DNA from: Parcubacteria group bacterium
GTDB taxonomy: Bacteria; Patescibacteriota; Minisyncoccia; UBA10092
Length of the DNA stretch: 64,000 bases
Reading direction: 5' to 3'
NCBI GenBank assembly: GCA_016186325.1
Contig: JACPLW010000001.1
Location: 187-64,186, forward strand
The first letter of the stretch is position 1; each line of letters begins with the position of its first letter. The position numbers were made by a program, and so were the translations under genes. Shown piece by piece: positions 188 through 62,909 of the stretch. The notes below the pieces were generated by a model, which saw only the letters and a program-made list of their open reading frames with translations, ran no database searches and was not told the DNA's origin.

Positions 188-1035
188 TAAAGTTCTAATT
201 TAAATTCCTCCGGATAATTAAGGACTCTTAGTTTATCAATATTATTTACCAAAGTATATAACGGCTGATTTTTAAATAATCCGAATTGCGGCCATTCTTT
301 GGGAGCAATTTTTTTTAACTCCGTTGCCGATTCATAATTTGGATTTTTAATAATATCAACCCCGTTAGAAGTCCGATGCATTTGCGCATCGGCAGACACC
401 GAAGGTGTCTGACTTCTAACGGGGTCAATCAAGTCATTATTTTTTAAAAAATAGTACATGGCGCCGTGATTATTTTTATATGATTCATAATCATATACCG
501 CTCTTTCACTTACCCAGTTCGCTAAAATAAGCGGCTTATCGGAGACATTAATTGTATTGTGGCCGTAAGACGGCGGTATTAAGAATTTTTCACCCGGACC
601 CGCTTCAGTTGCGTACGCATTTGATTCCGATTGTATGAGAAAGTAAGCTTGGCCCAGCAATACTTCGTACACCTCGGGATAACCCTTGTGATAATGACCG
701 GCGGTTTTCACGAATTCATCATCGACGGTTCCCGGAGGAATAAGCGTTAAATCATATCTTAAACTTGCCTTTTTTAACTTCGGGGTGTCTTTCGTTAAAT
801 GAACGTAGCGCCATACGTAATAAACCGGATCCGGGCCTGTATCAGTATGGGGATTTTTAAGATAGGGCCTCAGTTCCTCCAAGCTTCTCTCGGATTTTTT
901 TATGAATTGAAAATCTCCATTAAACTCTAAGTTCATTTTTTCTTCGTCAAGAAAAATCGGCAAGCCGGATATTTTCTGTAAGTCTACCATATGTTTACTA
1001 CTTCCAAACTCTTTCTGTTTCCACATACCACTCAT
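187..1035 (-). CDS. cupin-type glucose-6-phosphate isomerase (archaeal cPGI-like)
   Basis: 282 aa. Cupin PGI signature motifs are present: TAGHYHKGYPEVYEVLLG and PPSYGHNTIN. Confidence 0.5.
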   Translation of the reverse strand: MSGMWKQKEFGSSKHMVDLQKISGLPIFLDEEKMNLEFNGDFQFIKKSERSLEELRPYLKNPHTDTGPDPVYYVWRYVHLTKDTPKLKKASLRYDLTLIPPGTVDDEFVKTAGHYHKGYPEVYEVLLGQAYFLIQSESNAYATEAGPGEKFLIPPSYGHNTINVSDKPLILANWVSERAVYDYESYKNNHGAMYYFLKNNDLIDPVRSQTPSVSADAQMHRTSNGVDIIKNPNYESATELKKIAPKEWPQFGLFKNQPLYTLVNNIDKLRVLNYPEEFKLEL

Positions 1036-31184: not shown

Positions 31185-31355
31185 GGATAAAAGTACAGAA
31201 GCGAATGCAAATATTTTTCTGAAGCTTCCGCAGGCATTTTAGCATGGTTTTCCCTCAATTCCTTGCTATAGCAAGGAATTGAGGGAAATAAAATGCCGAG
31301 GACGGACAGCGAACTTCGCGCTGGCGAAGTGAGCGCGCGAGGAAAATGATTTTGG

Positions 31356-42251: not shown

Positions 42252-42414
42252 CAGCAACTCCGACGTTCTGGTTTACGCCAGAAGTCGGAGTTCCGACCTC
42301 CAAAGCATTGGAGCGTCGGAATTGACCCAGGTCCGATTCCTGGTGGGGGCATAAGCGTTTTGATGTGGATAAACTCCCGTCTACGGCGGGAGTTTATCGT
42401 GGTATAATTTAATT

Positions 42415-43437
42415 ATGATAAAAACGATAAAATGGCAATTTGTTATAATTTTTATAGTTTTTTTGTCCCTGAATACCACCTCTTATGCCGCTACCGGAAC
42501 CCCGACAATTTTTAGTTATCAGGGGCGACTGACTAATGCCGCCGGCGCTTTGCAAACCGGTACTTTTTATTTTAAATTTTCCATATGGGACGTGGCTACG
42601 GGGGGAACTGCCGGAACCAATCGTCTTTGGCCATCGGGCGGTCCCGCTGAAGTTTCAGCTACGGTTACGTCCGGAGTGTTTAACGTGAATATAGGCGACA
42701 CGGATAATGGATATCCGGATTCTTTAGATTATAATTTTAATACCAATAAAGATATTTATCTTCAGGTTGAGGCTTCTTCTTCAAGTGGTAGCGGTTTTGA
42801 AACTCTTGACCCAAGACAGCGAATTTCTTCCGCTGTTTTCGCCCGGCTTGCCGCGGCAGTAAGCGGAACGGGTCAATCATCTTTTGGCACCACAACCCCA
42901 AGTTCGGGAGCCATCGTTACTGTCGCGGCTACTACCACTTCCGCCATTCCTCTTTTCATACGCGGCGCGCTGGGGCAGGTGGCAAATTTATTTAGAATTG
43001 AAAATTCAATTTCAGACCTTTTGTTTTCTATTGATTACTCCGGCGGTATTTTTTCCGCTTCAACCACCGCAATCCTTGGTAATGTCGGCGTTGGTACAAC
43101 AACTCTGACCAGGAAATTTAATGTTTTTAGCGCGGATAGCGTTCCGCAGTTTAGGTTGAACCAGTCAAATTCCAACTACGGCGAGTTTCAAGCCGATTCT
43201 TCTGGTGACATTAAAATTTCTTCAACCGGCGGAAATATTAGGGGAGATAATGAAAATTTGTGGATCTGCGAGGGTGCGGGTTGTGGCGCAGATGATCCGG
43301 CGGATAAGGGAAATGTAATAGTGGAAACGAAAGTTATTTTTAATAATAACTTTAAACTTGGATACACCAGCGCCACAACAACAACCATGTATAATTCAAC
43401 AGGGACTCCAATACTGATATTTGACCAGGAGCAATGA
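42415..43437 (+). CDS. secreted Gly/Ser/Thr-rich protein (hypothetical)
   Basis: Signal peptide ...NTTSYAATG. Confidence 0.3.
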   Translation: MIKTIKWQFVIIFIVFLSLNTTSYAATGTPTIFSYQGRLTNAAGALQTGTFYFKFSIWDVATGGTAGTNRLWPSGGPAEVSATVTSGVFNVNIGDTDNGYPDSLDYNFNTNKDIYLQVEASSSSGSGFETLDPRQRISSAVFARLAAAVSGTGQSSFGTTTPSSGAIVTVAATTTSAIPLFIRGALGQVANLFRIENSISDLLFSIDYSGGIFSASTTAILGNVGVGTTTLTRKFNVFSADSVPQFRLNQSNSNYGEFQADSSGDIKISSTGGNIRGDNENLWICEGAGCGADDPADKGNVIVETKVIFNNNFKLGYTSATTTTMYNSTGTPILIFDQEQ

Positions 43438-44588: not shown

Positions 44589-44711
44589 ATGGATCCCGTT
44601 AGAGATTCAGGCCTTGTTTAGATCTGACGGGTATCATAAATTATCAAAACATGTTAAATCACGTATTAGACTTAATAACGGAAACGAAAGTTTCCTATCT
44701 CTAACGGGATG
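44589..44711 (+). repeat. start-codon-embedded inverted-repeat element, copy B (arms 44594-44606 and 44697-44709)
   Basis: ATGGATCCCGTTAGAGAT ... ATCTCTAACGGGATG. The A-to-G change is compensated in both arms. The 3' ATG is the start of the Tat-signal ORF. Confidence 0.6.
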
Positions 44712-44959: not shown

Positions 44960-45062
44960 ATGGTCCCGTTAGAAATTTATAAAATATAACCTGCCGGGAC
45001 TATAAATCAGTAATTATTTTTGATAAATTATAATAAATTAAACATAGATTTCTAACAGGATG
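44960..45062 (+). repeat. start-codon-embedded inverted-repeat element, copy C (arms 44964-44976 and 45048-45060)
   Basis: ATGGTCCCGTTAGAAAT ... ATTTCTAACAGGATG, with one C/A mismatch in the stem. The 3' ATG is the start of the next ORF. Confidence 0.55.
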
Positions 45063-58410: not shown

Positions 58411-58800
58411 ATGACTGATTTAAATAATGAAAATCCGCCATGGTATTCCTCGTATGAGAAAAATAATTACGGAGATTTGTTTTACGCGCTGATGCGCATT
58501 TATAAACCCAAGAAAGTTGTTGAATTGGGTACTAAAGCTGGATACAGCGCTTACCATATAGCAAGGGGGCTTAAGGATAATAGAAGAGGCACTCTGGACT
58601 GTTATGACTTGTGGGAGAGGTATGAATTTAAATCGGTACCTAAATCGGTTGCCGAGAAAAATTTAAAAAAATTTAAAGATATCATAAAACTTAAACAGCG
58701 CGACGCGATTGGAGTAAATAAGTTATATAAAAAAATTGATATTTTACATGTTGATGTCAGTAATGAGGGCGGAATTTTAGAAAAAATAATACCGAACTAG
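58411..58800 (+). CDS. small class I methyltransferase-like protein
   Basis: VVELGTKAGYSAYHIARGL. Confidence 0.35.
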   Translation: MTDLNNENPPWYSSYEKNNYGDLFYALMRIYKPKKVVELGTKAGYSAYHIARGLKDNRRGTLDCYDLWERYEFKSVPKSVAEKNLKKFKDIIKLKQRDAIGVNKLYKKIDILHVDVSNEGGILEKIIPN

Positions 58801-58991
58801 ATAGATAAGACACGCCAGCTTATAATTATTGAAGGCGGCTCACTAGAACGCGACAAGGTTGAGTGGATGATAAAATATAAAAAGATACCGATAAGAAAAT
58901 GGCTTAAAAATTTCGCTGACAAGAATGGAGATATTGAATATTTGATGATAGAACCGTTTCCTTCCATAACTATTATCTGCAAATTAAAAAT

Positions 58992-59012
58992 TAAGGACGT
59001 CTGACGTCCTTA
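58992..59012. repeat. 21-bp palindrome TAAGGACGTC-T-GACGTCCTTA (copy 3), preceded by AAATTAAAAAT
   Basis: Seen in sequence. Confidence 0.8.
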
Positions 59013-59016
59013 GATT

Positions 59017-60141
59017 ATGAATAAAATTATTACAAATCAAGAAAAGAACGCCCCGATTTCTAACGGGGTGAAATTAAATTTAGGTTGCGGTAAAGAGCAT
59101 AAAGAGGGATATATCAATATTGATATTCAAGAACCTTGCGATTTGAGGCATGATTTAAGAACCCCTTGGCCGTTTGACGACGGTTCGGTTGATGAAATAT
59201 TCACCGAAGATACTGTCCGCATTTTTTCGCTCAAAGAATGGGAGAAGGTTAAAAAAGAGATGGCCAGGGTTTTAAAACCCGGCGGCAAGCTGGAGATTAT
59301 CTTCCCGGACTTTGAATACATACTTAATGCTTTTTTAAAAAATGAAGACGGAAGAAGATGGAGTTGGTGGTGGCGGGTAATCTTTGGCTCTCAAGAGAAC
59401 GACGAATACCGTGATATTTGCAAAAACAGTTTTACTTATAAAAAATTATTGGCCGAGTTATTTAAGAAAGGGATGATAAACTTTAAAAAACAGCGATTAG
59501 AAGAACAACCGGGCTATATCCATTTAACTTGTCATAAACAGCCAGTTGACTATAAGATGCCGCATTCCCTAAGAGTTTTAATCGGAGTGCCAATTCATAT
59601 AAATTATCCTATAGAAAAATGCTTGGGATATATCTCTAAATTGAAATACCGGGCAGACCTTTTAATGGTAGATACTTCCTCTGGCCTTGGCTATCTGGAG
59701 AAAGTGAATGGGTACTGCGCTAAATACGGGATAAAGAATTATAAGATAGAACATTTGGAAATTAATCAAGAACAAGGAGAGGATGAAAGAATCGGCCGCT
59801 CAAGGGAGATAATCCGGCAATATGTTCTTTCCCATAATTACGACGCATGGTTTTCCGTTGAATATGACAACATCCTGCCGGCTAATGCCTTGGACAAACT
59901 GGTCGGGTTGATGGAAGAAGGCAATTTTATGATGGTATTCGTCCCCGCATTGGCAAATAAAATTCTTTGTGAACCCACTACTAATTTTGGTTGCGCTTTA
60001 ATCAGGCGGGAATGCTTTGAAAAGCATGGTTTTTTGTCTGAATATGATGCGATCAAATGTTGGCATGGAGTGGAGGTTTTTTTCAAAAAACGTTTCATTA
60101 AAAGCAGAAACTATTCCGACGATATTTACGAAATGGTTTAA
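59017..60141 (+). CDS. two-domain protein: SAM methyltransferase (LNLGCG motif) fused to paralog family C domain
   Basis: The first 17 codons (MNKIITNQEKNAPISNG) derive from a degenerate copy of the IR element. The true start is probably the GTG at 59068, giving (M)KLNLGCG. Confidence 0.45.
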   Translation: MNKIITNQEKNAPISNGVKLNLGCGKEHKEGYINIDIQEPCDLRHDLRTPWPFDDGSVDEIFTEDTVRIFSLKEWEKVKKEMARVLKPGGKLEIIFPDFEYILNAFLKNEDGRRWSWWWRVIFGSQENDEYRDICKNSFTYKKLLAELFKKGMINFKKQRLEEQPGYIHLTCHKQPVDYKMPHSLRVLIGVPIHINYPIEKCLGYISKLKYRADLLMVDTSSGLGYLEKVNGYCAKYGIKNYKIEHLEINQEQGEDERIGRSREIIRQYVLSHNYDAWFSVEYDNILPANALDKLVGLMEEGNFMMVFVPALANKILCEPTTNFGCALIRRECFEKHGFLSEYDAIKCWHGVEVFFKKRFIKSRNYSDDIYEMV

Positions 60142-60187
60142 TTAACATATCGTTACTGATAATTCCTCGGAAATTTTTAAAACGAAA

Positions 60188-60808
60188 ATGAAAATCCTTA
60201 TCGGCACGCCAATCCATATTTGTAAGGACTATTGCATGGAGCGATGGCTCCAAAACGTAGTCGAACTCCGTCTAAAATATCCGGCCGATTTGCTTTTGGT
60301 TGATAATTCCCCAGGGCTTGAATATGTGGAGAAAATGAAGGGGTACTGTGCGAAATATGGAATAAAAAATTATAAGATTGAACACATAGAACTTCCCCAG
60401 GAAAAGGTTTATCACGAAAAAATAGCCCGCTCAAGGGAGATAATCAGACAAGAAATGCTTGCCCATGATTATGATGCTTGGTTTACATGGGAATCCGACC
60501 AGCTCATACCAACCAATACTTTGGGCGAACTGGTTAGGATAATGAAGGGTGGAAATTTTATGATGATTAATCCCAATAACTGGGCAAGGGGGGTTCCCGA
60601 TCAGCCCAATACCGACCACGGCCTTTCTTTAATTAAAAGAGAAGTTCTGGAAAAGCATGGTTTCCTGCTTGAGTTTGGCACCGATCCTGAGATGCCAAAA
60701 AACTGGGACGAAAGCGATGCTTGGTTTAAGAAACGCGTTCTAAGGGATGGAGGCAATTTTATTGAACTTTATGGCGTTATTGAACCAGTTTATCACTTAA
60801 ACGAATAA
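60188..60808 (+). CDS. paralog family C protein (small GT-A-like, uncharacterised), copy 2
   Basis: MKILIGTPIHICKDYCMERW...LLLVDNSPGLEYVEKMKGYCAKYGIKNYKIEH. Confidence 0.4.
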   Translation: MKILIGTPIHICKDYCMERWLQNVVELRLKYPADLLLVDNSPGLEYVEKMKGYCAKYGIKNYKIEHIELPQEKVYHEKIARSREIIRQEMLAHDYDAWFTWESDQLIPTNTLGELVRIMKGGNFMMINPNNWARGVPDQPNTDHGLSLIKREVLEKHGFLLEFGTDPEMPKNWDESDAWFKKRVLRDGGNFIELYGVIEPVYHLNE

Positions 60809-60811
60809 TTT

Positions 60812-61618
60812 ATGCAACTTGGAATAACCACAATTCAACGCGACAGAGCTCCATGGATAAAAGAATGGGTTGCATTTCATTATTTAGTCGGCTTCAGGAA
60901 ATTTTATATCTATACTCACATGTGCTTGGATAACACGGAAGAGATTCTTAATGGTTTAAAAAATAAATTTGACATTACAATAATTCCGGTGGGGCCAGAG
61001 GTTGAAACGGCCCAAATGACGTCTTATCAGCATTCCTGCGACAATTTCCTGAAAGAAGTGGATTACATGGCGTTCATTGATAGTGATGAATTTTTATTCC
61101 CCACAGCTCATGATTCTATGGAAACTGCGCTGGCTGAATTTAACGATAAAAAAATATCCGCCCTAGGTGTTTATTGGTCGTGTTTTGGAAGCAGTGGATA
61201 TATTGAAGAACCGCCCGGTTTGATTATTGAAAATTATAGACGCAGAGCCGATGGCAATTTTGAGGCCAACCACCATGTAAAAAGCATTGTCCGCGGAAGG
61301 CAAGCCGCCTCATCCGTTCAAGTTGGTGAGAACGCGCATTTATTCAAAACTCCTCTTGGCACATTTGATGAGAATCTAAGGCCGATTACCTGCGGTCTTG
61401 AGATAAACTATGAGCCCACATATGAAAAATTTCGTATTAACCATTATATTTGCCAAAGCCGTTCATATTTTTTAAATTTCAAAAAAATTAACGTGGCGAT
61501 TTTCAAGGAAAGAATTAAACCGGAATCCTGGTGGGAGGAACATGATATAAATGATGTTTTAGACAATTCAACGGACAAATTTATCGGGCCATTAAAAAAT
61601 ATTTTAAATTCCATATGA
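60812..61618 (+). CDS. putative glycosyltransferase (GT-A fold, FIDSDEF DxD motif)
   Basis: 268 aa. Confidence 0.4.
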   Translation: MQLGITTIQRDRAPWIKEWVAFHYLVGFRKFYIYTHMCLDNTEEILNGLKNKFDITIIPVGPEVETAQMTSYQHSCDNFLKEVDYMAFIDSDEFLFPTAHDSMETALAEFNDKKISALGVYWSCFGSSGYIEEPPGLIIENYRRRADGNFEANHHVKSIVRGRQAASSVQVGENAHLFKTPLGTFDENLRPITCGLEINYEPTYEKFRINHYICQSRSYFLNFKKINVAIFKERIKPESWWEEHDINDVLDNSTDKFIGPLKNILNSI

Positions 61619-61689
61619 ATCCCGTTAGAAATAAAAAATCAGAGATTTTTGCCGACACGTCTGAAGCGAGTCGGATTTCTAACGGGATG
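61615..61689 (+). repeat. start-codon-embedded inverted-repeat element, copy D (arms 61620-61632 and 61675-61687)
   Basis: The leading ATG overlaps the upstream TGA stop as ATGA. The 3' arm ends on the ATG at 61687 (MKILIGTPIH). The ORF track reads through the element in frame. Confidence 0.6.
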
Positions 61690-62301
61690 AAAATCCTCAT
61701 CGGCACGCCAATCCACGAATGCAAGGATTATTGCATGGAAAGATGGCTGGAGAATGTTGCCAAACTTCAGCAACAGACCCCTGCCAATTTATTTTTGGTA
61801 GATAATTCGCCCGGGTTGGATTATGTGGAGAAAATCAAAAATTACTGTGCGAAATATGGAATTACGAATTACAAAATAGAACATTTGGAAATCAATCAGG
61901 CGCAAGGAGCGGACGAGAGGATCGGCCGTTCAAGAGAAATAATCAGGCAGGAAATTCTTTCCCATGATTATGACGCTTGGTTCTCCTGGGAATGCGACCA
62001 AATTATACCGGCGAATGCCTTGGATAAATTGATTGATATAATGAAAATAGGGGATTACGCGATGGTTAGCCACGGTTCATGGTCAAGAAAAAATCCCGGT
62101 AGTCCCGAAAATGATTTAGGATGCGCTTTAATAAAAGGAGTATGCTTAGAAAAATACAGTTTCTTGCTTCAAGAGTACTGGGACCTGACTCGGTCTTGGC
62201 ATGCCGGCGCAAGATGGTTTAAGCATCGTTTACTTAAAGGCGGAGACAATTATATTGAGGTCTATGGAGTAGTCGCTCCCATATACCATTTAAACGAATG
62301 A
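61687..62301 (+). CDS. paralog family C protein, copy 3
   Basis: MKILIGTPIHECKDYCMERW. The start is reassigned from 61615 to 61687. Confidence 0.45.
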   Translation: MKILIGTPIHECKDYCMERWLENVAKLQQQTPANLFLVDNSPGLDYVEKIKNYCAKYGITNYKIEHLEINQAQGADERIGRSREIIRQEILSHDYDAWFSWECDQIIPANALDKLIDIMKIGDYAMVSHGSWSRKNPGSPENDLGCALIKGVCLEKYSFLLQEYWDLTRSWHAGARWFKHRLLKGGDNYIEVYGVVAPIYHLNE

Positions 62302-62909
62302 AAATACTTATCGGCACACCAATTCATATCTGCAAAGATTATGCTATGGAAAGATGGCTTAAAAGCGTATCCGAGCTTACTTACCCTCACGATTTTATGA
62401 TGGTTGATAATTCGCCTGACGAATCATATCTGGAAACGGTTAAGGGCTATTGCGCAAAATACGGCATCACCAACTATAAGCTGGTACATGTTGACGTTGA
62501 CCAAAAGTTGGGCACTGACGGAAAGTTATCCTTTGCCAGAGAAATAATAAGGCAGGAGATTTTAACAAAAGGATATGATGCCTGGTGTACTTTGGAGTGC
62601 GACATCATTGCTCCGCCAAACGCTCTTGATGAATTAGTCAGATTAATAGCCGATTGCATGGAAATTAATCACTCCTATCCATCCAGAATAAATCCAAAGG
62701 AGATGATGAGCGGTTTCGGGCTGTCTTTAGTTAAAAGAGAAGCGCTTGAGAAATATGAGTTTATCGGCCAGTACGGCGATTGCGACCCGGAGATGCCCGG
62801 TATTTTTCAGGGAGGAGAAAGCTGGTTTATTACAAGGGTTATTAGAAATGGCGGTAGTTGTATTGATGTTTCCGGGGTTATCAAGCCAATTTTTCATCTG
62901 GATAAATAG
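62298..62909 (+). CDS. paralog family C protein, copy 4
   Basis: MKILIGTPIHICKDYAMERW. Confidence 0.4.
   Translation: MKILIGTPIHICKDYAMERWLKSVSELTYPHDFMMVDNSPDESYLETVKGYCAKYGITNYKLVHVDVDQKLGTDGKLSFAREIIRQEILTKGYDAWCTLECDIIAPPNALDELVRLIADCMEINHSYPSRINPKEMMSGFGLSLVKREALEKYEFIGQYGDCDPEMPGIFQGGESWFITRVIRNGGSCIDVSGVIKPIFHLDK

Follow-up and report, generated by a model that had tools for sequence, protein, structure and literature searches.

We describe a short, non-coding inverted-repeat element in a 64,000-nt stretch of a Parcubacteria group bacterium genome (contig JACPLW010000001.1 of assembly GCA_016186325.1; hereafter the window), where it sits on the start codons of genes and displaces the starts that are called for them. 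We propose, with a probability of about 0.75, that it is a MITE-like mobile hairpin (MITE, for miniature inverted-repeat transposable element) and that it inserts on start codons. This proposal builds on the anatomy of the element, its target duplications, empty sites, the N-termini of homologous proteins, a wide distribution, a bias towards start codons and structural covariation, all of which are directly observed. The element measures 30-129 nt, ends in 13-nt terminal repeats (YCCCGTTAGARRT and AYYTCTAACGGGR) and is flanked by a target duplication of 3-4 bp, mostly TNNA. Five intact copies (A, B, C1, C2 and D) and one decayed copy (E) are present in the window, which has paired arms at five places as against 0.00 expected from 100 shuffles, and the 12-nt arms are perfect in four of the five intact copies. 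No further decayed copies were found in the window, the other loose single-arm matches being chance matches in coding sequence. An earlier note on positions 59017-61689 had claimed that the element distorts gene-start calls in an array of paralogs, through an intact copy that is read through (D) and a decayed one (E).

Copy D (66 nt, positions 61621-61686, on the plus strand like all window copies other than A) is bounded by two 12-nt arms without a mismatch, CCCGTTAGAAAT (61621-61632) and ATTTCTAACGGG (61675-61686), which enclose one hairpin at 61634-61650 and another at 61652-61674; T61620 and A61687 extend the inverted repeat to 13 nt, and the copy folds with a minimum free energy (MFE) of -31.3 kcal/mol (z -6.6). 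The left target copy ATGAAT lies at 61615-61620, its ATG (61615-61617) overlapping the TGA stop (61616-61618) of a GT92-like gene at 60812-61618, and the stretch 61615-61689 reads ATGAAT, CCCGTTAGAAAT ... ATTTCTAACGGG, then ATGAAAATC. The ATG at 61687 is composed of the last base of the element, A, and the duplicated TG. The longest open reading frame (ORF; 61615-62301, 228 aa) starts at the first ATG and takes up the element as 24 in-frame, stop-free codons, such that MNPVRNKKSEIFADTSEASRISNG precedes MKILIGTPIH, whereas the probable true coding sequence (CDS; 204 aa, MKILIGTPIH...) runs from 61687 to 62301 on the plus strand. The long form is also the one found in the public annotation (MBI2634998.1, 228 aa; NCBI, HYW79_ locus tags).

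Comparison with paralogs and homologs places the start of this gene at the second ATG. Two paralogs without the element, at 60188-60808 (start ATGAAAATCC) and 62298-62909 (both on the plus strand), open directly with ATGAAAAT and serve as empty-site comparisons within the window; the ATG of the latter overlaps the upstream stop (ATGA), which is likely the ancestral state of the copy D junction. Most of the 66 listed stand-alone homologs begin M[KR][IV]LIGTPIH, the remainder having short unrelated leaders or truncated starts, and none of the 66 conserves the copy D extension. A close relative (P0241, locus L129; homologs and loci are given by our P and L numbers) is free of the element and has an ATGA-overlap start, and so represents an empty site, while a strain variant (P0243) keeps the copy D frame open with one S-to-P change. 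Another locus (L127) carries an element at the same MKILIG start, with arms that have co-varied to TCCGTACGAAAT and ATTTCGTACGGG, and here the frame of the first ATG meets a TGA inside the element. The claims that the first 24 codons of the ORF called at 61615 are the element itself, and that the conserved start MKILIGTPIH is the ATG at 61687 shared with 60188 and 62298, therefore agree with both the layout of the site and the homolog N-termini; going by these N-termini, translation probably begins at ATG 61687.

Copy E is a 45-nt remnant (59023-59067, plus strand) in which the 3' arm ATTTCTAACGGG is intact (12/12, 59056-59067) and the 5' arm is degraded beyond recognition, the best match by eye being 7/12 with a 3-nt offset. 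It is preceded by the left target copy ATGAAT (59017-59022, plus strand), from which both the ORF caller and NCBI begin the gene, and is followed by GTGAAATTAAATTTAGGTTGCGGT, i.e. a GTG at 59068 and then KLNLGCG. The flanks ATGAAT...GTGAAA (ATGAA-T ... G-TGAA-A) match the duplication architecture of copy D. Downstream lies a fusion of a methyltransferase with the paralog domain, whose probable true CDS uses this GTG (59068-60141, plus strand, (M)KLNLGCGKEHKEGY...); if so, the ORF at 59017-60141 is 17 residues too long, as is the public long form (MBI2634995.1, 374 aa). Among about 20 full-length homologs of the fusion, six start exactly with MKLNLGCG (P0002, P0003, P0006, P0011, P0018 and P0020), the others have one to a few unrelated residues ahead of KLNLGCG, and none conserves the MNKIITNQEKNAPISNG extension as protein sequence. 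The orthologous locus that encodes P0002 (L128) is an empty site with an ATGA stop/start overlap (...TTATGAAATTAAAT...); across the gene junction it reads ...AATTATGAAATTAAATCTTGGC..., for which the window has ATGAA-[T...45 nt...G]-TGAAATTAAAT, and the GTG at 59068 thus occupies the position of the ancestral ATG. The ...ISNG tail of both called extensions is the translated 3' arm. These observations bear out the remaining claims about this site, namely that a decayed copy with a surviving 3' arm lies at 59017-59070 and that the fusion probably starts at GTG 59068. Since NCBI carries both long forms, the distortion of starts is real in public data.

The anatomy of the element was extended to other genomes by an exact-arm pattern scan over one genome per species, which gave at least 120 loci; the counts over 125-130 copies given here and below refer to the matches listed. 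The base outside each arm is complementary to its counterpart (Y..R) in 124 of 128 copies (T..A in 70, C..G in 54), and the inverted repeat is therefore 13 nt long. The next four bases form a direct repeat that varies by site (TGAA, TGGA, TAAA, TCAA, TATA and others), with a three-base or decayed duplication in a minority of copies. ATGAA/ATGAA (17), ATGGA/ATGGA (11) and ATGAA/GTGAA (6) occur among the flank pairs, and the copies at start codons have stops in most frames and lack an ORF of their own. Nested copies (L050, L010 and L005), miniature copies of 30-36 nt with little beyond the two arms (L045 and L066), decayed copies and empty sites (the in-window paralogs at 60188 and 62298, L128, L129 and most of the glucose-6-phosphate isomerase homologs described below) are hallmarks of a non-autonomous DNA transposon. 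Many copies in other genomes have mutated arms, and together with copy E and the same-site elements of distant relatives (L124 and L127) they agree with the view of the earlier note that the family is old enough to have decayed. Two variants of the ends were also seen. Several copies from unrelated genomes, none with a target duplication, share an extra RCYTGT (ACTTGT/ACCTGT) beside a single arm, on the left flank in L047, L102 and L052 and on the right flank in L076, L082, L009 and L021, which suggests a longer, asymmetric end in one subfamily. In six others (L075, L078, L048, L030, L014 and L101), several of them from genomes outside Patescibacteria, the flanks form an inverted and not a direct repeat (TTCAC-CCCG...CGGG-GTGAA), giving a palindrome of 17-18 nt.

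Most of the listed matches fall in Patescibacteria, including Saccharibacteria, Paceibacterota, Nomura-, Kaiser-, Doudna- and Yanofskybacteria, among others, but the element also occurs on large contigs of Deltaproteobacteria, Planctomycetota, Nitrospirota (a 1.7-Mb contig), Omnitrophota, Gammaproteobacteria and Stahlbacteria. A phage origin was rejected, IMG/VR giving only three matches.

The association with start codons is pronounced. In 65 of 125 copies, an ATG or GTG from which an ORF of 60 codons or more runs lies directly against one end, and the opposite end of such copies is preceded by ATG plus 2-3 bases. In the window, all five non-genic copies lie on start codons as against at most 3.7% per copy under neutrality, an expectation derived from 853 intergenic TNNA sites and at most 33 ATGNA starts. 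For example, copy B (97 nt, 22576-22672) separates the rsmH stop (ATGA overlap) from the next gene's ATG at 22673, copy C1 (114 nt, 44595-44708) has the flanks ATGGAT/ATGGAT, and copy C2 (95 nt, 44965-45059), with one arm mismatch (CAGG), abuts the ATG at 45060 of a 163-aa ORF. In B, C1 and C2, stops follow shortly after the first ATG, and their genes must therefore use the second start. In 22 of 56 host genes, and in 87 of 708 control ORF starts, a -10-like hexamer (at least 5/6 of TATAAT) ends 5-9 nt ahead of the first ATG (odds ratio 4.6, p ~1e-6), and the positional peak is sharp, with 16 of 65 copies at two positions as against about 0.4 expected per position; many hosts therefore look leaderless, with the element at +6 of the transcript. 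Shine-Dalgarno motifs are scarce in the window genome (about 7 of 68 long ORFs), which may explain why a start shift of about 100 nt does little harm. The downstream genes belong to unrelated families, and a regulator specific to a gene family or pathway was rejected on this ground. Termination-reinitiation by designed placement of stops in an upstream ORF was likewise rejected, the lengths of start-class copies modulo 3 being evenly spread (judged by eye), as was an outward promoter inside the long copies, where -10 boxes are unbiased (39 sense vs 42 antisense, no position bias). Several window genes have a TATAAT-like box 6-7 nt upstream of their ATG (e.g. 42400-42417, with TATAAT-N6-ATG at 42415, and 24680-24697), which suggests frequent leaderless mRNAs in this genome.

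Between the arms, it is structure rather than sequence that recurs. Interiors are mostly unalignable, 100 of 127 listed ones being singletons in all-against-all BLAST, and those of the window copies are unrelated save for a Y architecture common to A and D. Short copies of this kind have a long stem and two hairpins whose junction bases are conserved (..AGA-stem-TCT G CCG-stem-CGG A..), and an alignment of 12 Y-shaped copies from 11 genomes (A2) shows compensatory changes in 14 of 26 pairs, a count biased upward because the members were picked for folding. Copy A and the element at the same site in L124 differ at about one-third of interior positions and keep both hairpins. In long start-codon copies a small covarying hairpin (e.g. 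GGAAATC-TAAA-GATTTCC) followed by TA comes just before the 3' arm; copy C1, for example, has GGAAAC-GAAA-GTTTCC and TA at this place, and by eye the hairpin faces the downstream gene in about 20 of 23 long copies. The two variable arm positions are Watson-Crick paired in 125 of 130 cases, and the element can fold very stably (z -11 and -6.6). A test of the arms for RNA-specific wobble was uninformative (3 A-C vs 2 G-T mismatches). The pairing fits either a requirement for mobility, with copies younger than they look, or maintenance in place, be it through selection acting on the structure of the RNA or DNA or through repair templated by the palindrome. Rfam 15 at the gathering threshold matched only four tRNAs in the window, and at E <= 5 its sole overlap with an element was an implausible snoR12 at 61582-61657, over the 5' half of copy D (24.8 bits vs 39 needed). 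No known ribozyme or intron signature was found in the element, and the cores of hammerhead and other ribozymes, compared by eye only, do not fit. Searches of the literature for the arm sequence and for a MITE, palindromic element or start codon in Patescibacteria or the Candidate Phyla Radiation returned nothing relevant, and start codons go unmentioned in a 2024 review of MITEs (PMC10969869).

Copies also occur inside genes. Copy A (63 nt, 361-423, minus strand) is Y-shaped and forms an in-frame insertion, PVRSQTPSVSADAQMHRTSNG, with a TTGA duplication in the gene for a cupin-type glucose-6-phosphate isomerase (GPI; 187-1035); with two duplicated codons, it adds 23 codons just past the Pfam domain. 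In an alignment of 12 chosen GPI homologs (A1), nine pass straight from ...DLI to DIIKNP and are thus empty, P0122 has a 63-nt element at the copy A site, and in P0121 (L125), at 97% identity, no more than a palindromic remnant of 27 nt is left at that site. An independent 54-nt copy is present at a different GPI site in P0208, and P0224 has a miniature copy (VRNGVSN). All 12 listed copies in long ORFs are stop-free multiples of three, which argues that they are translated rather than removed from RNA. The earlier note's suggestion that the element can add in-frame N-terminal extensions stands as a possibility, D and E being open in frame and the first ATG of D overlapping the upstream stop; a capacity for translation is better illustrated by copy A than by D or E. 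Two observations concern the GPI loci themselves. At the copy A site of L125, a short palindrome, CCCG-CTCTTAAGCTTAGGGG-CGGG, replaces the 63-nt element and may be an excision or deletion footprint. At 1420-1656 of L126, a gene for a 78-aa GIY-YIG nuclease lies directly downstream of a GPI gene with an independent element.

Based on these features, insertion by the proposed mobile hairpin can be pictured as follows. With A|TGNA as the target, the left copy of the duplication would keep the old ATG and, in operons with an ATGA overlap, the TGA stop of the upstream gene, and the right copy, TGNA, would combine with the last base of the element (A or G) to rebuild an RTG abutting the 3' arm. Elements with T..A ends would yield ATG and those with C..G ends GTG (ATGAAC...GTGAAG-type flanks), such that the gene would keep its original N-terminus and gain a second candidate start, the two lying 50-125 nt apart. 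Where the element happens to be open in frame (D, 66 nt; E, 45 nt), calling the longest ORF would take the upstream ATG and produce a false extension, copy E plausibly being the same type of insertion after decay of the 5' arm. Translation would proceed from the downstream RTG. Inside genes only stop-free multiples of three would persist, translated as loop insertions as in copy A. Mobilisation would perhaps occur in trans by a DDE-type transposase, and the enrichment at start codons may reflect a target preference for the AT-rich promoter and transcription-start DNA of leaderless genes combined with purifying selection.

Several observations weigh against this picture. Neither the window nor the surroundings of unpaired arms yielded a transposase with these ends, pattern searches having covered end spacings of up to 600 nt, and the unpaired arm in L083 has no adjoining transposase ORF. 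Five copies of one genome with unrelated interiors, and 100 singletons among 127 interiors overall, are unusual for a MITE derived from a master copy. The arms stay perfect and covary (125/130, with L127 co-varied) while interiors differ, which hints at constraint in place or templated repair over pure selfish drift. The start-codon enrichment far exceeds simple tolerance, and the choice of the start codon in use rests on homology. Searches of the literature for the arm sequence and for a MITE, palindromic element or start codon in Patescibacteria or the Candidate Phyla Radiation returned nothing relevant, and start codons go unmentioned in a 2024 review of MITEs (PMC10969869).

One alternative account is that the hairpin is a functional cis element retained at the 5' ends of genes, spread by transposition and kept by selection on RNA structure. 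Its role could be that of a site for RNase III-type processing, of a 5' stem-loop giving protection or of a governor of translation. The two hairpins kept by the 12 Y-shaped sequences with compensation in 14 of 26 pairs, the preservation of both stems in copy A and L124 across differences at about one-third of interior bases, the small hairpin and TA oriented to the downstream gene in about 20 of 23 copies, the very stable folds (z -11 and -6.6) and a position at the extreme 5' end of transcripts in apparently leaderless genes would all be expected of such an element, and the cleavage of Correia elements by RNase III offers a precedent (PMC10969869). Against this, the host genes come from unrelated families, intragenic Y-shaped copies occur in both orientations (antisense in L046, sense in copy A), the arms show no bias of G-U over A-C, and close relatives (L125 and L129) lose or shorten the element unharmed. 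Moreover, members of A2 were selected for folding, which biases the covariation count, and an appearance of compensation could also arise from templated repair of a quasi-palindrome or from a hot spot that receives insertions more than once. We consider a retained cis function rather unlikely.

A different question is whether the copy D extension is real, ribosomes re-initiating at ATG 61615 after the upstream TGA and reading the 24 codons into an extended enzyme, which would make the element a source of new protein sequence. The ATGA stop/start overlap at 61615-61618 puts the first ATG in a good position for translational coupling, copy D is a stop-free multiple of three whose frame stays open in P0243 despite the S-to-P change, internal copies appear to be translated, and in a genome poor in Shine-Dalgarno motifs neither start is favoured by a ribosome-binding signal. 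However, the extension is conserved in none of the stand-alone homologs, a TGA interrupts the first-ATG frame of the L127 element at the same start, and in B, C1 and C2 the stops soon after the first ATG make the second start obligatory; an extended enzyme seems possible but doubtful. Removal or skipping of the element in the RNA, as a tiny intron-like or processing element or through a ribosome hop from the first AUG to a matched second AUG, is highly improbable. Such an event would find identical take-off and landing contexts (AUGRA ... RUGRA) where a very stable stem closes and, with a -10 box 6-7 nt before the first ATG in about one-third of hosts, an AUG at the 5' end of a leaderless mRNA, and it would explain why an otherwise seemingly costly insertion is common. 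Yet all 12 intragenic copies are stop-free multiples of three, a regularity that led us to reject splicing; the sole apparent exception, L042, has stops but lies between divergent genes, and the element carries no known ribozyme or intron signature. Nearly as speculative is the view that the hairpin is more than a parasite that is tolerated, namely a pan-bacterial mobile module aimed at transcription and translation starts, especially the 5'-terminal AUG of leaderless mRNAs, whose 13-bp stem would be recognised as RNA. Either cleavage at the 3' base of this stem would restore an RUG as the 5' terminus, or the initiating ribosome would bridge or hop the stem; if true, the duplicated start would be part of a new kind of start-site control, a form of 'start-codon punctuation'.

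Compared with known systems, the element, which we take here as a mobile hairpin, resembles the Correia elements (NEMIS) of Neisseria, which likewise code for nothing, are short, end in terminal inverted repeats with a short duplication, occur in many copies, some of them nested, lie mostly beside gene 5' ends, form a long hairpin in mRNA and can give rise to ORF fusions (PMC10969869). It differs from them in having arms of 13 rather than 26 nt and a TNNA rather than TA duplication, in the occurrence of the same arms across several phyla rather than one genus, in interiors that are unalignable within one genome, in insertion exactly on start codons with a rebuilt RTG, and in that no internal promoter bias was found and no parent insertion sequence is known. 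Rickettsia palindromic elements (RPEs) are also palindromes found in frame in unrelated housekeeping genes and translated, similar to copy A, P0208 and P0224. However, RPEs are about 100-150 bp long, confined to Rickettsia and share a conserved peptide-coding consensus, whereas in the present element conservation is limited to the arms (peptide PVR...SNG), start codons are the site of most copies and target duplications are clear; host lineage (Patescibacteria and others) and size further set the two apart. Repetitive extragenic palindromic (REP) sequences and REPINs, associated with the IS200/IS605-like RAYT transposases, are comparable as short hairpin repeats without a transposase gene of their own in which structure, not the interior, is maintained, but REPINs are species-specific, extragenic, carry a GTAG motif and lack a target duplication. 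The site-specific duplications of 3-4 bp seen here argue for staggered-cut (DDE-type) insertion. Translational-bypass inserts, such as the gap of T4 gene 60 and the 'byp' elements of Magnusiomyces mitochondria, are mobile hairpin inserts flanked by matched codons in frame. They differ in that the intragenic copies here leave the frame open, the 'take-off' codon not being followed by a stop. The attC sites of integrons were considered because the ends GTTAGAA / TTCTAAC resemble GTTRRRY and RYYYAAC and because conserved ends surround a variable centre; they were ruled out by eye, the order being reversed (GTT...AAC vs AAC...GTT), the last motif base a misfit, cassettes absent and target duplications present. 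On this view the element would be of a known kind, a MITE whose in-frame copies are RPE-like, and would stand out in three respects: the same ends across phyla, precise insertion at start codons that are rebuilt by the terminal base, and conserved structure with unconstrained sequence.

The practical consequence is that, wherever the element sits, the publicly annotated proteins of this genome carry false N-terminal extensions and split or odd starts, as probably do those of many other Patescibacteria; a simple arm-plus-RTG rule would correct these miscalls. The element also adds loops to conserved enzymes, represents an unusual coexistence of mobile DNA with very compact genomes, and offers a way to approach leaderless initiation, and the choice of start codons, in uncultivated bacteria.

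The window is part of a cellular chromosome and not of a phage, given that it encodes RsmH, FtsI, Ddl, a MurC-like ligase, DnaK, GroEL, PBP1A, TatC, DnaB, CysS and four tRNAs. Copies D and E lie in a glycan-modification cluster that comprises an aminotransferase, methyltransferases, a GT2 glycosyltransferase, the GT92-like gene and four copies of a domain of about 205 aa, the paralog domain, which has no match to a Pfam family. Depending on the genome, the methyltransferase and this domain are fused in either order or stand alone (59017-60141; homologs P0008, P0016 and P0019-P0035). A Methyltransf_24-type gene (58411-59004) has one in-frame TAG at 58798-58800 (...EKIIPN*IDKTRQLIIIEGGSLERDKVEW...), after which the frame stays open for 68 further codons to 59004; it could be a pseudogene, a sequencing error or a case of stop-codon read-through. 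Two other palindromes were noted in the window. About 100 nt upstream of copy B, the rsmH coding region contains at 22408-22474 a perfect 20-nt inverted repeat (ATCCCCCACCCTTGGAAGAT / ATCTTCCAAGGGTGGGGGAT) with a 27-nt spacer and an MFE of -38.5 kcal/mol, which is in frame and encodes ...NPPPLEDKQNLNTKGEIFQGWG...; it may be a second, unrelated palindromic insertion, and no other copy of it was seen among the loci collected for the element. The other, at 31249-31288, is perfect over 40 nt (TTTCCCTCAATTCCTTGCTA|TAGCAAGGAATTGAGGGAAA); flanked by convergent genes, it is probably a bidirectional terminator.

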